A stretch of DNA of 20,000 nt, taken from assembly GCA_964636085.1 (NCBI GenBank), contig CAZWPQ010000034.1, positions 1,991 through 21,990 of the forward strand, read 5' to 3'. The notes below the pieces were generated by a model. That model was not told the DNA's origin, ran no database searches, and worked only from the letters and a program-made list of their open reading frames with translations. Shown piece by piece: positions 9,943 through 17,639 of the stretch (its first letter is position 1; every line of letters begins with the position of its first letter). The position numbers and the translations under genes are program-made. This DNA comes from an uncultured Nitrososphaerota archaeon. Lineage in GTDB: Archaea; Asgardarchaeota; Njordarchaeia; Njordarchaeales; Panguiarchaeaceae.

Positions 9943-12195
9943 ATGGTAAAGATCAAAGGAGCGGAAGAAATTCGTGGGTTAGTAAAAAAACTACCTCTAG
10001 AACAACGGAGAATATTTAGCATCACAGCTCATATAGATCATGGAAAAAGCACAATGTGTGATTTTTTGCTGGCGAGGGCTGGTCTTATGTCCCAAGAATT
10101 GGCTGGCGAGAAAAGGATGACAGACTACGATGAAGAGGAACAAAAGAGAATAATTACAATATTCACCACAGTAGTTAATCTACTCTATAAATATGGGGGG
10201 AAGGACTACCTAATACAGCTCAACGATACACCAGGCCACATATCATTCACAGGCGAAGTTTCAAGGGCAATACGTGCAAGTGATGGTATTATCTTATTGG
10301 TGGATGCTGTGGAAGGAGTAATGACACAGACAGTTACAAATTTAAGATTAGCCCTGCAAGAAGGATGTAAGCCCGTGCTATACATAAATAAGGTAGATAG
10401 GCTTATATCAGAATTAAGGTTAAGTCCCCAAGAAGTCGTAACACGTATCGACGCAATAATCAGAGAGGTAAATAAACTAATAGAAATGTATGCGCCAGAA
10501 CCTTTCAAGAAGGAATGGAAAGTTAATTTTATGGAGGGCACTGTCGCTATTGGATCGGCGAAGGACGGGTGGGGTTTCACATCAGATATCCTTAAAAAGA
10601 AATTTGAAGACCCCCGTGAGGGCTACATTAAGATCTTCAAAAAATATGAAGAAGGCGACATAAACTGGTTAAGAGAAAATCTACCCCTAGATGAGGCGAT
10701 ACTAGAGATGGTAATCAAGCACCTTCCAAGCCCCAAGGAGGCGCAAAAATACAAGATAGAGGCAATATGGCGGGGTAAGACGGATATAGACGTTTATGAC
10801 GCACTAATTAATGTGGATGCTAATGGCCCTCTCGTAGGTATGATTACGAAGATTTTCGTTCATCCTAGAACATTTCAAACTGTTCTAATTGGTAGAGTAT
10901 GGTCTGGGACACTTACAAATGATGTAGAGTTATATCTTTTGAGCAAGGGAACCACAGCAAGGCCTCATCGACTTGGGGTTATGGAGATAACGGATATATT
11001 AGATGTCGATGCGATACCAGCAGGAAACCTATTTGCCATGACGGGCTTTTTAGTTCCCGCGGGCGAAAGTTTTGTGACGGCAGAACTCTATAATGAATAC
11101 AAGGACATAATAGAGGCAGGAGAATTCGGTTTCGAACCCATCCCATATGCTAGCGAACCAGTTGTTTCTAGAGCAATTAGGCCAAAAGACCCTAATGAGC
11201 TAGATACGTTAGCTAGAGTTGCAGAAATGTGGGTGGCTGCTGATCCAACAGCAAAATTTTATCTGGATAGGGAATCCAATCAATACATCCTAGCGGGCGT
11301 GGATCCATTGCAACTAGAGATCCTTATAAAGAGGATAGGCATGAAGGTCCCTGTCGAGGTGGACGAACCAATAATAGTATATAGAGAGCGTGTCGAAAAA
11401 AGCGGGATTGAGGTCACTACGAAATCTCCAAATGCACTTAATCGTCTAACACTATATGTCGAACCACTGAGCAATGATGTTGCTGATGCTATAAGGAAAG
11501 GCCTGATAAAGGAGGAGCAAGACCCCAAGGCCAGAGCTAGGATACTCAGGGAGAACTTTGGATGGGAAACGCATTTGGCGCGCAATATAATTGCTATAGA
11601 GGAGACAAACATACTTATTAATGCGACGGTTGGTGTCCAAAGATTTGATAGGATCAAGGACTATATAATAGCAACATTTAGGGACTTTTGTAGAGGTGGA
11701 CCTCTCGCTAAGGAACCAATACAGCATATGAAGGTAGTGATAACCGATGCTGTTGTTCACGAAGACCCGGTGCATACTCAGATGGGACAAATATTTCCAA
11801 TGACTTTCTCTGCGTTAGCTGTGTCATTCTTAACAGGGAATCCAGCAATATTTGAACCAGTGCTAAGAGTAGATGTTAAGGCACCACAAAGATTCATGGG
11901 ACCGCTAATAACTCTGCTATCACAAAGAAGGGGCAGGATATATGAATCAACAATAGAGGGCGAAGATGTACATATAATAGCTCATGTACCCGTACCCGAA
12001 ACACTTGATTTAGCCGAAAGATTAAGGTCTATAACAAGTGGAAGGGCGTTCTTTGGATACCAATTCGAGACATGGTGGCGTGTGCCTGATTCAATGCAGG
12101 CTGATTTGATACGTAATATAAGGAGAAGGAAGAAACTAAAGGAAGAACCTCCAACAGTGAAAGATTTCGAAAGATTTATCTACCAACGAACATGA
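9943..12195 (+). CDS. fusA: Archaeal translation elongation factor 2 (aEF-2 or aEF-2 paralogue), divergent
   Basis: 750 aa: AHIDHGKST, DTPGH, NKVDR, EKRAMTD-like N-domain, domain IV ITDAVVHEDPVHTQMGQIFP, C-terminal SGRAFFGYQFETWWRVPDSM...RRRKKLKEEPPTVKDFERF. Collinear with Sulfolobus-type aEF-2 over its full length. Confidence 0.9.
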   Translation: MVKIKGAEEIRGLVKKLPLEQRRIFSITAHIDHGKSTMCDFLLARAGLMSQELAGEKRMTDYDEEEQKRIITIFTTVVNLLYKYGGKDYLIQLNDTPGHISFTGEVSRAIRASDGIILLVDAVEGVMTQTVTNLRLALQEGCKPVLYINKVDRLISELRLSPQEVVTRIDAIIREVNKLIEMYAPEPFKKEWKVNFMEGTVAIGSAKDGWGFTSDILKKKFEDPREGYIKIFKKYEEGDINWLRENLPLDEAILEMVIKHLPSPKEAQKYKIEAIWRGKTDIDVYDALINVDANGPLVGMITKIFVHPRTFQTVLIGRVWSGTLTNDVELYLLSKGTTARPHRLGVMEITDILDVDAIPAGNLFAMTGFLVPAGESFVTAELYNEYKDIIEAGEFGFEPIPYASEPVVSRAIRPKDPNELDTLARVAEMWVAADPTAKFYLDRESNQYILAGVDPLQLEILIKRIGMKVPVEVDEPIIVYRERVEKSGIEVTTKSPNALNRLTLYVEPLSNDVADAIRKGLIKEEQDPKARARILRENFGWETHLARNIIAIEETNILINATVGVQRFDRIKDYIIATFRDFCRGGPLAKEPIQHMKVVITDAVVHEDPVHTQMGQIFPMTFSALAVSFLTGNPAIFEPVLRVDVKAPQRFMGPLITLLSQRRGRIYESTIEGEDVHIIAHVPVPETLDLAERLRSITSGRAFFGYQFETWWRVPDSMQADLIRNIRRRKKLKEEPPTVKDFERFIYQRT

Positions 12196-12275: not shown

Positions 12276-12378
12276 GCCGGGGTTGCCGAGCTGGTACGGC
12301 GTCGGCCTGCTAGACGAGCGGCCATTGTAGAAAGCCGATGGCGTTTTCGCCTCGCGGGTTCGAGTCCCGCCCCCGGCA
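12276..12378 (+). tRNA. tRNA-Ser(GCU) with a 20-nt canonical-position intron (12313-12332)
   Basis: Acceptor GCCGGGG/CCCCGGC, D stem GCCG/CGGC, anticodon stem TCGGC/GCCGA, spliced loop CUGCUAA, variable arm GGCG-TTTT-CGCC, T arm GCGGG-TTCGAGT-CCCGC. A BHB-like 4-bp helix CUGC/GUAG flanked by 3-nt bulges UAG and AAA places the intron at 37/38. Confidence 0.88.
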
Positions 12379-14525: not shown

Positions 14526-15404
14526 TTGAACTATAGACACGCTATTAGTTGGTGTGGCATCATGGTTATTAGGGCCGTAGCCTTATTTGATGCCTATGGT
14601 AATGAAATATTCTATAACACTTATGCCAATTTTACCCCGAACTTTCCTCTCCTTAATAGGATATTGCTAGGTATGAAGGAACACTTCATAAAGGAGGTTG
14701 ATTCGCTGGAAATGGGCCAGTATAGAATTTCGCTTATGATAACATCTAACTTTATGTTGTCGATATTGGCTGATAGGGTAAATAGTGCGGAGGAACTGGA
14801 AAAAGTATTAAGAAGACTCATGGAGGATGCAGTGGATATTTTTGGTGACGCCACTAAAGAAAGTGTGTCTAATGAGAGTGTTGAAAAATTTGAACAATGC
14901 GTGGAAGATGCAATAAAGATGATTCCAGTTAAGTGTACCTTGACTGGGTACGGGGGGGTAGGTAAGACGACAATAGTTAAGCTTGTTGCGAAGGGAATCA
15001 CAGTTAGTAAGCATATTCCTACGATACTAGCCGACGTGGAGGAGCTTCATATAGAGGGCATTGAACCGTTTAAAGTAACCCTATTCACTGTTGCTGGCCA
15101 GCCAGAATACTGGCGAACTTGGATGGTTACCACAGAAGGGTCGGACTTTGTGGTTCTCGTCACCGATTCGAGTGAAGAGGACGTTATTAGGCTTCAGAAG
15201 GAAATATTGCCATATCTGATGAAGATAACTCCGTATTCAAGATTTACGTTGATAGCTAATAAACAGGATCTTCCTGATAGATTGCCCCCTTCAGCGATAG
15301 AGGAGTTGACGGGATTTCCATCGTATCCACTTGTGGCTATATCTCCTGACGCCAAGGAAAGATTTATTGAAATTCTTAATTCGATGATAAGGGAGTTGCC
15401 TTAG
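14526..15404 (+). CDS. Small GTPase (MglA/Arf/Rag-like) with N-terminal longin/roadblock-like domain; likely start at ATG 14562
   Basis: N-terminal MVIRAVALFDAYGNEIFYNTY...LLGMKEHF, P-loop GYGGVGKTT, G3 region LFTVAGQPEYW, G4 IANKQDLPD. Confidence 0.8.
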   Translation: MNYRHAISWCGIMVIRAVALFDAYGNEIFYNTYANFTPNFPLLNRILLGMKEHFIKEVDSLEMGQYRISLMITSNFMLSILADRVNSAEELEKVLRRLMEDAVDIFGDATKESVSNESVEKFEQCVEDAIKMIPVKCTLTGYGGVGKTTIVKLVAKGITVSKHIPTILADVEELHIEGIEPFKVTLFTVAGQPEYWRTWMVTTEGSDFVVLVTDSSEEDVIRLQKEILPYLMKITPYSRFTLIANKQDLPDRLPPSAIEELTGFPSYPLVAISPDAKERFIEILNSMIRELP

Positions 15405-16970: not shown

Positions 16971-17078
16971 CTAAACCACCATGAAGCATACTCATTAAAC
17001 GTTAGATAATAAAAAAATATTAAAATTTTTTGATACTATAGAAATGGCAAAAAATGAGGTATCATGTAAAATTATACT

Positions 17079-17151
17079 GGGCCGGTGGCCTAGTGGCTAT
17101 GGCGTCCCGCTTACGACGGGGAGGTCGGCGGTTCAAATCCGCCCCGGCCCA
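17079..17151 (+). tRNA. tRNA-Val(UAC)
   Basis: Acceptor GGGCCGG/CCGGCCC plus A73, anticodon stem TCCCG/CGGGG with loop CTTACGA (anticodon 17112-17114), T arm GGCGG-TTCAAAT-CCGCC. Confidence 0.95.
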
Positions 17152-17175
17152 CTTTTGCCTAGGTGTACAATACTT

Positions 17176-17249
17176 GCGCCGGTGGTCTAGAGGTAGGATG
17201 CCAGCCTCCCAAGCTGGTGACGCGGGTTCGAATCCCGCCCGGCGCACCA
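17176..17249 (+). tRNA. tRNA-Gly(CCC), 3' CCA encoded
   Basis: Acceptor GCGCCGG/CCGGCGC plus A73 at 17246, CCA at 17247-17249, anticodon stem CCAGC/GCTGG with loop CTCCCAA (anticodon 17208-17210), T arm GCGGG-TTCGAAT-CCCGC. Confidence 0.95.
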
Positions 17250-17296
17250 AAAACATATAGAAGTTCATTGGTTCATAATTTCCTATTGGCAAAATC

Positions 17297-17304
17297 TTTT
17301 TATA
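17297..17304 (+). promoter_or_regulatory. Possible TATA box for the permuted 5S rRNA gene
   Basis: TTTTTATA preceded by an A-rich BRE-like AAAATC, about 37 nt upstream of the terminal stem; implied start near 17327-17332. Confidence 0.35.
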
Positions 17305-17340
17305 GGCATTAGGATATAGTATTATTTTGGACATAGCAAT

Positions 17341-17495
17341 GGCACGGGGGCCGAAAGCTAAGCCGCGCCACGCCGATCCGAGTAGTCTGGTGGGAGACCC
17401 CAGGCGAAAGGACGGTGCTGTCCGCCCTTTGGGGTGGACGGCCATAGGGCGCGGGCTACGCCCGAACCCATTCCGAACTCGGAAACTCCCGTGCC
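17341..17495 (+). rRNA. 5S ribosomal RNA, circularly permuted gene order
   Basis: Normally-3' segment first (17358-17428: CUAAGCCGCGCCACGCCGAUCCGAGUAGUCUGGUGGGAGACCCCAGGCGAAAGGACGGUGCUGUCCGCCCU), then the normally-5' segment (17431-17484: GGGGUGGACGGCCAUAGGGCGCGGGCUACGCCCGAACCCAUUCCGAACUCGGAA). Helices I, II, III, IV and V can all be paired by hand. Outer stem GGCACGGGGG/CUCCCGUGCC joins the new ends. Confidence 0.9.
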
Positions 17496-17639
17496 ATTTT
17501 TATATCGTGAGGTTATGATTGTCTTTTTAGGGCGTCTCGCTTTTGTAAGAATATAACCCAGTGGAAATAGATGATATCTAATAGATGTTGATCTATCCTG
17601 TATGTTATCAACTTAGCCTTTTTTAATAAAATCTTCGTC

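Follow-up and report, generated by a model that had tools for sequence, protein, structure and literature searches.

A 5S rRNA gene in rotated order

The evidence supports reading positions 17338-17498 on the forward strand of the window (the whole 20-kb stretch of DNA that was analysed) as a genuine 5S rRNA gene of an archaeal chromosome, complete but circularly permuted. The organism would, moreover, rely on it as its functional 5S gene, with a transcript spliced by EndA and a ligase into a circular 128-nt 5S rRNA that the ribosome uses; this we hold with a little more confidence than doubt. Judged by its genes, the window is archaeal, and the nearest labelled relatives are Asgard.

The portion corresponding to canonical positions ~52-120, normally the 3' part of the molecule, lies upstream here, at 17357..17427 (+), and comprises the 3' side of loop B, the 3' strand of helix II, helix V, loop E (GAGUA), helix IV with a GAGA loop D, and the 3' strand of helix I. 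A UUUG tetraloop (17428..17431, +) then closes helix I at the very site of the 5' and 3' ends in a conventional 5S, and leads into the 5' portion (canonical 1-51; 17432..17484, +), made up of the 5' strand of helix I, loop A (CCAUAG), the 5' strand of helix II, helix III and loop C (CCCAUUCCGAAC), and ending in ...CUCGGAA. Both portions are marked out by half matches to the Rfam 5S model (RF00001) and by a canonical profile, the upstream one also by covariation in helices II, IV and V. The pairings worked out by hand in the preliminary description agree with the sequence throughout: helix I joins 17420-17427 (GUCCGCCC) to 17432-17439 (GGGUGGAC) under the UUUG cap, helix II joins 17363-17369 to 17448-17454 (7/7 pairs), helix III CCGA 17462-17465 to UCGG 17479-17482, helix IV CUGG 17387-17390 to CCAG 17400-17403 and helix V 17371-17379 to 17410-17417, while a terminal stem joins 17341-17350 to 17486-17495 and reaches 13 bp when extended (17338-17350 with 17486-17498). 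The whole element folds at -92.4 kcal/mol (z = -5.9), with 0/200 shuffles as good; its full-length minimum-free-energy fold has the outer stem and helix I closed and loop C misfolded.

The gene is invisible to standard annotation. At its gathering score (38 bits) RF00001 finds neither a collinear 5S nor any other match in the 20-kb window, and 0/20 related loci reach that threshold. In E-value mode the two order-swapped half matches that had been foreseen do appear, the 3' half at 17329-17426 (27.3 bits) and the 5' half at 17434-17527 (26.5 bits), both below the gathering score. A covariance model of the rotated alignment, built from 14 other permuted genes with the window and its near relatives excluded, gives a single full-length match at 17338-17498 (model 1-160, 158.9 bits, E 2.4e-33), again as anticipated; the same model scores complete held-out permuted genes at 131-151 bits, the 5'-truncated L108 at 106 and canonical 5S genes at 24-58. 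A profile made from 20 canonical archaeal 5S genes matches the native order in two separate pieces (profile 4-54 at product positions 78-128, and 56-128 at 2-73) and the product spliced and rotated in silico in one (profile 4-128, 73.3 bits, E 1e-23), the profile aligning directly across the predicted ligation junction; the corresponding products of all 21 sequences described below score 63-89 bits. The loop A, loop C and loop E motifs are all present, so that 5S motifs are conserved over the full length, and both profile tests agree with the original claim that the 5S consensus is complete but rotated. No canonical 5S was found in the 20-kb window or in ~122 kb of sequence flanking the permuted loci.

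We infer from the surrounding signals that the permuted 5S is a single transcription unit with its 3' half upstream of its 5' half. A putative archaeal TATA box (TTTATA, 17299..17304, +, within CTTTTTATAGG) stands ~34 nt upstream of the outer stem, a position that implies a transcription start a few nucleotides before 17338, and a TTTAWA box preceded by an A-rich stretch is found 22-45 nt upstream of the outer stem at 21/21 permuted loci. The T5 run overlapping the end of the stem (17497..17501, +) is likely an archaeal oligo-T terminator; T-tracts follow the stem in most of the other permuted loci. Directly upstream lie the genes for tRNA-Val(UAC) (17079-17152, +) and tRNA-Gly(CCC) (17176-17249, +); in L004, L091 and L105, the closest relatives, two tRNA genes likewise precede the permuted 5S. 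On long contigs of an 82%-identical relative the upstream synteny (helicase-SMC-PriL-ThiF-aEF-2) is kept and the downstream region is divergent; these contigs hold no 5S.

Recurrence and covariation among Asgard-affiliated lineages

The search for relatives with the same layout, which the preliminary description had proposed, returned the rotated gene in 21 distinct sequences, drawn from genome and metagenome assemblies that are independent of one another, on contigs of up to 402 kb. The carriers include Njord-, Baldr- and Frey/Jordarchaeia together with several unlabelled Asgard-affiliated clades, amounting to at least 8 Asgard-related lineages besides that of the window, and their spliced products are 59-92% identical to that of the window. 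Judged by MAG and sample names only, many come from hot-spring, hydrothermal or deep-sea samples. The pattern used for the first collection had also brought in material of other kinds, mostly canonical bacterial or archaeal 5S genes with a chance GAGTA upstream, as well as a conserved coding region of Acidobacteriota; inspection and the R1 model served to remove them.

Compensatory changes, as had been hoped for in the terminal stem, are found there and in all five 5S helices: 39/47 pairs have changed on both sides, and RNAalifold recovers helices I-V and the three-way junction. The paired fraction of cells is 94.9%, vs 65.9% in shuffled alignments and 38-54% in slid registers, with 0/500 shuffles reaching the observed values. 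In the outer helix each of the 13 aligned pairs has changed on both strands among 19 sequences, and pairing holds in 93.5% of cells. Covariation is also seen in helix III, at the pair of columns 137-151 (UA 11, AU 7, GC 1); the G at column 22, the predicted first base of the product, pairs with the C at column 133 in 19/19, equivalent to canonical pair 52-26, and the pair after it, equivalent to canonical 53-25, is C-G in 14 and U-A in 5. On the strength of these changes, the permuted gene is to be regarded as real and under selection.

Helix I and its cap show a variability of their own. The natural 5S termini are bridged by a linker of 3-5 nt across the set, on a helix of 7-12 bp; the cap is UUCG in 7/19 distinct hairpins and GNRA in 2/19. 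The UUCG caps occur in separate lineages, and close relatives differ, with UAGA in L004 and UUCG in L091. This variation indicates selection for what would be a stable, permanent cap.

A splice-site-like motif beside the outer stem

The terminal stem had been taken for a clamp that holds together the new ends inside loop B. Its pairing is real, but the role of clamp suits it less well, since the outer helix abuts a site resembling the archaeal bulge-helix-bulge (BHB), where predicted cleavage and ligation bring back the canonical 5S junction exactly. More likely, then, the stem serves processing and is taken off. In the window its strands, AAUGGCACGGGGG (17338..17350, +) and CUCCCGUGCCAUU (17486..17498, +), form 13 contiguous pairs and belong to the covarying set. 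Immediately inside them is the leader tetranucleotide CCGA (H5, 17351..17354, +), whose proposed partner is UCGG (H3, 17479..17482, +), with 4/4 Watson-Crick pairs; in the mature fold H3 serves as the 3' side of helix III, and in the proposed BHB precursor conformer it would be the partner of CCGA. On either side of this short helix are two 3-nt bulges, AAG (B5, 17355..17357, +), with a predicted cut at 17356/17357 that would make G17357 the first base of the product, and AAA (B3, 17483..17485, +), with a predicted cut at 17484/17485 that would make A17484 the last.

This geometry does not vary across the set. The outer helix is 5-16 bp long and different in sequence in almost every lineage, and in 21/21 it adjoins the 4-nt segment without a spacer; again in 21/21, the 4-nt segment lies between two bulges of exactly 3 nt each, which is the geometry of the archaeal BHB. 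B5 reads AAG, AGG or AAA, and B3 reads AAA, AAU or, in a shifted register, GAA. Cuts of the NN/N type followed by ligation give the junction GAACNCGGAA-GYUAAGCC in 21/21, with products of 121-134 nt. In the window, 17484 joined to 17357 gives GAACUCGGAA-GCUAAGCC, the canonical junction, in a product of 128 nt. Of particular interest is the Baldrarchaeota copy L054, in which the tetranucleotides are CGUG/CACG and the register is shifted by one base, and which still restores CACGGA-AGUCAAGCC; other than through selection acting on the spliced product, such a shift would be difficult to account for. The leader CCGR-AA, which is not 5S sequence, is nearly invariant beside a hypervariable stem.

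The outer helix is present and covaries, but the site departs from the strict hBHBh' form in that an inner helix past the second bulge is absent, leaving a relaxed helix-bulge-helix-loop. Within the 4-nt helix, 9 of the 21 sequences, including the window, have four standard pairs and the other 12 have three plus a G.A or A.A; in the 19-sequence alignment three of its positions never change, and a standard pair stands at the fourth in 8/19 only. Covariation in this helix was seen in none of the 21 sequences except L054, and sequences of the ACGG type have the leader CCGG or CCGA, never CCGU. Since native helix III uses UCGG too, as its 3' strand, the splice-site conformer and the mature fold compete for it; the H5:H3 helix does not form in the full-length minimum-free-energy fold, which also misfolds loop C, and it does form in folds of mini-substrates, although these were designed to form it. 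The complementarity could in part be a frozen relic of a tandem duplication, as the CCGGAAG leader resembles the 3' NCGGAAG and CCGG is palindromic. We also considered that the leader CCGG-AAG might itself be the 3' strand of helix III, with the break elsewhere, and rejected this: no pairing with the 5' strand of helix III is possible for the CCGA found in the window and in L004, L091 and L094, whereas the 3'-terminal NCGG pairs with it 4/4 and covaries.

An intron-containing tRNA-Ser gene in the same window (12276..12378, +; Rfam tRNA 48.7 bits, with an insertion in the anticodon loop) offers a comparison. Its anticodon stem (UCGGC/GCCGA) is followed by a 3' bulge AAA, a 4-bp helix CUGC/GUAG, a 5' bulge UAG and then a loop, without a third helix. 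ARAGORN with option -i reports a tRNA-Ser with a 20-nt intron; NN/N splicing at 37/38 gives an 83-nt tRNA-Ser(GCU) that ARAGORN accepts, while the program's own placement of the intron is 33/34 (AGA), so that as a calibration the placement is ambiguous. The intron shares the helix/AAA-bulge/4-bp helix/NNG-bulge/loop architecture, which suggests that the enzymes of the host already handle the relaxed form.

Proposed maturation and alternative readings

From these elements we infer the following course for the transcript. The precursor, of ~170 nt, would be transcribed alone from the TATA-box promoter to the oligo-T stop, and its 5' leader and 3' trailer would pair into the 13-bp helix. The leader CCGA would then pair with the UCGG of the 5S body beside this helix, setting out the AAG and AAA bulges of a relaxed BHB site, each of which the tRNA-splicing endonuclease (EndA) is predicted to cut after its second base, at 17356/17357 and 17484/17485. 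The tRNA ligase, presumably RtcB, would join A17484 to G17357 and so restore the strand ...GAACUCGGAAGCUAAGCC... between helix III and loop B. With helix I already closed by the UUUG loop, the outcome would be a covalently closed 128-nt circle with the normal three-way fold of 5S, used as such by the ribosome. Steps of this kind are known from other rRNAs: BHB cleavage and ligation circularise archaeal pre-16S and pre-23S (PMC8339473), circular 23S has been reported in mature archaeal ribosomes (PMC12918454), and in E. coli a 5S is functional when a 4-nt connector joins its native ends (PMC7283268). The wider proposal, that several Asgard-affiliated lineages (Njordarchaeales, Baldrarchaeia, Frey-/Jordarchaeia, the clade of the window and others) have the rotated 5S only, and a ribosome with a circular 5S made by tRNA-splicing endonuclease and ligase, is put forward tentatively, the balance here inclining slightly towards doubt.

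A precursor that is trimmed or used as it is, with no ligation, would instead leave a linear permuted 5S with its ends between helix III and loop B, the stem being kept as an extra arm, as the preliminary description had it, or removed, and would resemble the 5S of brown-algal mitochondria. This reading can draw on the rotated order, on the closure of helix I and on the terminal stem, none of them in doubt; helices II and III would hold the nicked strand together, permuted 5S of organelles do stay permuted in the final product (PMC4267664), and the central helix of the proposed splice site shows no covariation. We nonetheless think it unlikely, because a simple clamp needs neither the fixed 4-nt/3-nt/3-nt geometry seen in 21/21 nor a conserved non-5S leader beside a hypervariable stem, because a stem that ranges from 5 to 16 bp, and that a 21-nt insertion breaks up in L009, is what one expects of a processing stem that is thrown away and not of an arm embedded in the ribosome, and because the register shift of L054 preserves the ligated sequence and not the positions of the ends. 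It also counts against an unligated product that those of archaeal EndA (pre-16S, pre-23S and introns) are normally ligated. Less likely again is that the circle is an intermediate only, cut and ligated and later opened again, in the helix I cap or close to it, so that a conventional linear 5S results. The 3-5-nt linker on its 7-12-bp helix, repeatedly UUCG or GNRA, would make a poor nuclease target, unlike a disposable spacer, and helix I drifts in length as a solvent-exposed hairpin would. Nor is any enzyme analogous to RNase P or tRNase Z known that would make 5S ends at such a loop. Precedents can be cited on both sides: transcripts of permuted tRNA genes pass through a circle whose later linearisation restores the usual termini (Soma 2007/2014, as cited in PMC4267664 and PMC7758197), and circular pre-16S and pre-23S are usually re-opened (PMC8339473), while 5S with joined native ends works in E. 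coli (PMC7283268).

That this is no working gene at all, but tandem 5S fragments joined in assembly or a duplicate in decay with a normal 5S elsewhere, seems very improbable. Permuted genes plausibly do arise from tandem duplicates, and the CCGGAAG leader looks like a remnant of one. Against this stand the same architecture in 21 distinct sequences from unrelated samples and assemblers, a TATA box at each locus and a T-tract at most of them, the preservation of the universally conserved 5S motifs, and natural ends joined by a tetraloop instead of spacer DNA. Recurrence in so many sequences, together with the 39/47 compensatory pairs, leads us to reject both the assembly join and the decaying copy, and the assembly-artefact reading is effectively refuted.

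Relation to known permuted and circular RNAs

Our literature search found no published report of a chromosomal archaeal permuted 5S, in agreement with what the preliminary description had said, and searches for 5S in Njordarchaeales or Freyarchaeia, and for the MAG names, returned nothing. The comparison it had drawn with the mtPerm-5S of mitochondria in brown algae and other stramenopiles holds in so far as both are permuted 5S genes, with helix I a closed hairpin, termini elsewhere and a sequence that the standard 5S model misses. It is otherwise loose, since the break here is between helix III and loop B and not at the alpha/gamma junction. The mtPerm-5S is organellar, with helix I replaced by a 5' hairpin and ends at that junction, has no flanking stem or BHB, and gives a final RNA that is linear and permuted (PMC4267664); the gene described here is chromosomal and archaeal. 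With its break in the beta domain it falls outside mtPerm-5S, and in a permissive Rfam scan of 17250-17600 RF00001 was the best 5S-clan match on both halves, so that no other family of the clan, mtPerm-5S included, scores above it, one lower-scoring match of the same clan having been suppressed without being named.

Permuted tRNA genes are known in Cyanidioschyzon merolae and other algae, and in one archaeon, Thermofilum pendens. In these genes, too, a single transcript has the 3' half upstream, and leader and trailer pair into a BHB-type site, at which the tRNA-splicing machinery is thought to cut and ligate, with a circular intermediate (Soma 2007/2014, as cited in PMC4267664 and PMC7758197). 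There the spacer is removed by RNase P and tRNase Z, whereas the permuted 5S has only a stable 3-5-nt loop in that place, so that the circle is probably the end product; and permuted tRNAs are scattered over individual genes, while the permuted 5S is fixed across several deep lineages.

Archaeal 16S and 23S precursors likewise have a long flanking stem with a BHB, where EndA cleavage and ligation lead to circular rRNA, and in some lineages (Pyrococcus/Thermococcus; Methanosarcina and others) a circular or permuted derivative is the mature 23S (PMC8339473, PMC7758197, PMC12918454). Those genes are in conventional order and it is the natural ends that are ligated; in the permuted 5S the gene is rotated and it would be the internal strand between helix III and loop B that is repaired. 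The 5S has been described as outside the BHB pathway, and a 2026 preprint treats 5S circles as BHB-independent. Low-abundance circular reads do show 5S with joined ends in Sulfolobus, Halobacterium and Pyrococcus (PMC3326292), but from genes of conventional order without a BHB, and as minor circles of uncertain meaning, which in Sulfolobus could not be validated by RT-PCR. The engineered 23S-cp5S of E. coli, in which the native ends are linked by a 4-nt connector and new ends placed elsewhere, supports working ribosomes; it is artificial, with the new ends in loop C or D tethered into the 23S and no splicing step (PMC7283268).

Implications

The 5S, a universal RNA, is taken to be trivial to recognise in an archaeal genome, yet the standard model misses it throughout this set of lineages. 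With 0/20 loci above the Rfam threshold, these genomes will be scored as lacking a 5S, which affects both MAG quality standards and rRNA inventories. If the proposed maturation is correct, splice-type (EndA/RtcB) processing would extend to the one archaeal rRNA thought to lie outside it, and 5S maturation would depend on the splicing machinery; this would be the first natural case in which gene rotation and ligation are needed to build a 5S, and a circular 5S in the mature ribosome is predicted. A possible link between an RNA without ends and thermostability also suggests itself. A rotation with a single shared breakpoint would, in turn, be a rare genomic change marking a clade within the archaea closest to eukaryotes, and as a discrete character common to Njord-, Baldr- and Frey/Jordarchaeia and the unlabelled clades it could help with the question, now in dispute, of how these groups branch close to where eukaryotes arose.

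The rotated 5S rRNA gene

The preliminary description read window positions 17341-17495, extendable to 17338-17498 (+), as a 5S rRNA gene in rotated order, the 3' half encoded before the 5' half, and its helix coordinates all match the sequence. With the Rfam 5S model (RF00001) at its gathering score of 38 there is no match in the full 20-kb window, where only four tRNAs pass; a permissive scan of 17250-17600 gives the two partial, order-swapped matches that had been predicted, one to the 3' half of the model at 17329-17426 (+, 27.3 bits) and one to the 5' half at 17434-17527 (+, 26.5 bits), both below that score. The folding energy of the element region is -92.4 kcal/mol (z = -5.9 against shuffles).

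Twenty archaeal 5S genes of conventional order, an incidental catch of the first collection scan, provided a canonical profile. The element in native order matches it in two split pieces (profile 4-54 at product positions 78-128, profile 56-128 at 2-73), and the element spliced and rotated in silico gives one match (profile 4-128, 73.3 bits, E 1e-23) that runs unbroken across the predicted junction. A covariance model, R1, was built from 14 other permuted genes (alignment A2); neither the window nor its three nearest relatives nor the Baldrarchaeota locus L054 contributed to it. R1 has exactly one match in the window, at 17338-17498 (158.9 bits, E 2.4e-33, model positions 1-160), the single full-length match anticipated for a model of the rotated alignment. 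With R1, complete permuted genes kept out of the model score 131-151 bits, the 5'-truncated locus L108 106, and canonical 5S 24-58. The interpretation as a permuted 5S gene is supported, and the finding goes beyond what was originally stated.

Splice-site-like flanks

The flanks were tabulated for 21 permuted sequences. On the 5' side an outer helix of 5-16 bp is followed by 4 nt (CCGA, CCGG or CUGG), 3 nt (AAG or AGG) and YUAAGCC; on the 3' side GAAC is followed by 4 nt (UCGG, ACGG or CCGG), 3 nt (AAA or AAU) and the outer helix, and no spacer separates that helix from the 4-nt segment. The 4-nt segments are mutually complementary (4/4 in the window, CCGA/UCGG), and when they pair each 3-nt segment is a single-strand bulge. 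Judged from sequence, this geometry is that of the archaeal bulge-helix-bulge (BHB) motif, in which the tRNA-splicing endonuclease (EndA) cuts each bulge between its second and third bases. Applied to the window in silico, that NN|N rule gives a 128-nt product, G17357 to A17484, whose joined ends read GAACUCGGAA-GCUAAGCC, identical to the canonical strand that links helix III to loop B. The canonical junction is regained in all 21 sequences, with predicted products of 121-134 nt. The most telling case for the splice-site reading is L054, whose motif lies one base out of register (CGUG-AAA / CACG-GAA) and whose predicted ligated junction, despite the shift, is CACGGA-AGUCAAGCC. The first product base, G, is paired with its canonical partner in 19/19, and the adjoining pair covaries as C-G or U-A.

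The leader, CCGR-AA, is non-5S sequence, nearly invariant beside a hypervariable stem. Several features weaken the splice-site reading. Three pairs of the central helix are invariant and the fourth is standard in only 8/19; a CCGU leader is never seen with ACGG-type sequences, and there is no inner helix past the second bulge. In the native fold UCGG belongs to helix III, as its 3' strand, which sets the splice-site and native conformers in competition, and the splice-site motif does not form in the full-length minimum-free-energy fold of the element. The leader also looks like a duplicate of the 3' NCGGAAG, and CCGG is a palindrome, so some complementarity may be left over from the tandem duplication that presumably gave rise to the rotation.

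A calibration comes from an intron-containing tRNA-Ser at 12276-12378 (+), which scores only 48.7 bits with Rfam and is missed by default ARAGORN. Its anticodon stem (UCGGC/GCCGA) is followed by an AAA bulge, a 4-bp CUGC/GUAG helix, a UAG bulge and then the loop. NN|N cuts fall at the canonical 37/38 position, removing 20 nt and leaving an 83-nt tRNA-Ser(GCU) that ARAGORN accepts. ARAGORN -i itself places the intron at 33/34 (anticodon AGA), which is less likely because archaea are not known to use A34 anticodons, though the placement is still ambiguous. Read with cuts at 37/38, the intron lacks a third helix and matches the 5S junction in its relaxed form.

At one permuted locus, L009 (4582-4789, +), just 5 bp (GGGUG/CACCC) make up the proximal outer helix. 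Beyond it come an asymmetric internal loop, with 21 nt inserted on its 3' side, and then a second helix of 10 bp (GAGACGCGUG/CACGCGUCUC); the flank looks like a two-tier processing stem.

Distribution among archaea

Two collection scans, with patterns demanding 3'-half motifs upstream of 5'-half motifs, returned 89 loci from species-representative genomes and 30 from JGI metagenomes. On inspection most proved to be canonical 5S genes that happened to have GAGTA upstream, or coding regions, and were discarded. Six loci from Acidobacteriota / Terriglobia (L017, L023, L032, L048, L058 and L086), unrelated to 5S, had matched the first pattern by chance; a near-identical stretch of ~113 nt that they have in common looks like a conserved protein-coding segment.

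There remained 21 distinct sequences of permuted 5S, whose products are 59-92% identical to that of the window. Labelled carriers are Ca. Njordarchaeum / Njordarchaeota (L018, L061 and L082), Ca. Baldrarchaeota (L054) and 'Promethearchaeati' (L021), and other carriers bear the labels Crenarchaeota, Thermoproteota or Nitrososphaerota. A 99% identical TrpRS assigns L079 to Ca. Freyarchaeota, and Orc1/Cdc6 of the L092/L096 lineage is nearest those of Baldr-, Atabey-, Hel- and Odinarchaeia (56-61%). The aEF-2 of the window matches its own clade at 58-100% and thereafter Asgard labels only, at 53-58%; an Arf/Ras-family small GTPase is also encoded in the window. No family in Rfam 15 recognises permuted 5S in the window and 20 permuted loci scanned, and none of those 20 loci reaches the Rfam 5S threshold; standard annotation would therefore call such genomes 5S-less.

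The most divergent permuted lineage is that of L092 (3373-3472) and L096 (5038-5137), with CCAAAG rather than CCAUAG in loop A and a loop C one base shorter (CCCA-GCCGAAC). Its 5S adjoins the Orc1/Cdc6 gene, and a replication origin may be near.

Probable transcription unit and neighbouring genes

At every permuted locus a TTTAWA box, itself preceded by A-rich sequence, stands 22-45 nt upstream of the outer stem (TTTATA at 17299-17304 (+) in the window), and at most loci a T-run comes directly after the stem (here T5, 17497-17501 (+)). A tRNA gene pair upstream is common to the closest relatives, L004, L091 and L105. A 127-aa ORF at 17062-17445 (-), which spans the genes for tRNA-Val and tRNA-Gly as well as the first half of the 5S element, is almost certainly spurious, a product of RNA genes that are rich in G+C within a genome rich in A+T.

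In the 292-aa ORF at 14526-15404 (+) the C-terminal half holds an Arf/Ras/Roc small-GTPase domain, and the N-terminal ~130 aa have no assignment; eukaryote-like GTPases of this kind are common in Asgard archaea. In the clade of the window's aEF-2 (9943-12195, +), all members (protein-collection matches P0001-P0022) except P0010 are without a precomputed match to PF03144 (EF-Tu domain 2), which is present in most other Asgard EF-2; either a divergent paralogue of EF-2 or divergence specific to the lineage could account for this.

Covariation and the fate of the RNA

RNAalifold on the 19-sequence alignment A1 recovers helices I-V and the outer stem, with both-sided changes preserving 39 of 47 pairs. 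By pair counting on A1, 94.9% of cells are paired, versus 65.9% when shuffled and 38-54% with slid partners; the covariation score is 0.753 versus 0.215, and none of 500 shuffles attains any observed pairing measure. All 13 pairs of the outer stem vary on both sides. Such two-sided covariation of helices and outer stem excludes an assembly join, and the comparison argues strongly against a decaying copy; a non-functional locus we regard as highly improbable. The rotated gene is clade-wide and under selection.

The splice-site-like flank predicts 5S maturation that depends on EndA and the tRNA ligase RtcB, and a 5S rRNA that is probably circular. Archaeal EndA products are normally ligated, as in pre-16S, pre-23S and introns (PMC8339473), and mature ribosomes of several lineages are reported with circular 23S (PMC12918454). 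A linear permuted RNA would recall the organelle mtPerm-5S, whose product is linear and whose architecture is unlike that of the permuted archaeal 5S (PMC4267664); for the archaeal gene we find it unlikely. Permuted tRNA genes, as cited in PMC4267664 and PMC7758197, follow the same logic as the rotated 5S, yet are re-opened at their natural ends, and a circle re-linearised in this way to conventional 5S seems to us a still more doubtful outcome. Helix I has 7-12 bp and a closing loop of 3-5 nt in the permuted set; among 19 distinct hairpins UUCG closes 7, across separate lineages, and GNRA closes two, and close relatives differ in their caps (UAGA in L004, UUCG in L091). This pattern fits a cap that is kept for good as part of the structure, rather than a spacer to be cut. 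In E. coli, growth is supported by a 5S whose native ends are joined through a 4-nt connector (PMC7283268). On balance we lean towards a mature 5S that is circular.

Post-transcriptional permutation occurs in the 23S of Pyrococcus and Thermococcus, where gene order is conventional (PMC7758197; bioRxiv 10.64898/2026.03.23.713588). A 2023 survey lists the organelle case as the sole 5S permutation (PMC10085705), a 2026 paper has 5S not processed via circularisation, and a 2026 preprint assumes that 5S circles would be BHB-independent. The arrangement was not reported in the literature covered, mostly outside subscription journals, on permuted or circular 5S or on 5S with Asgard, BHB, Njordarchaeales or Freyarchaeia. 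The rotated gene would extend to 5S rRNA two things already known, BHB-mediated RNA circularisation and permuted RNA genes.
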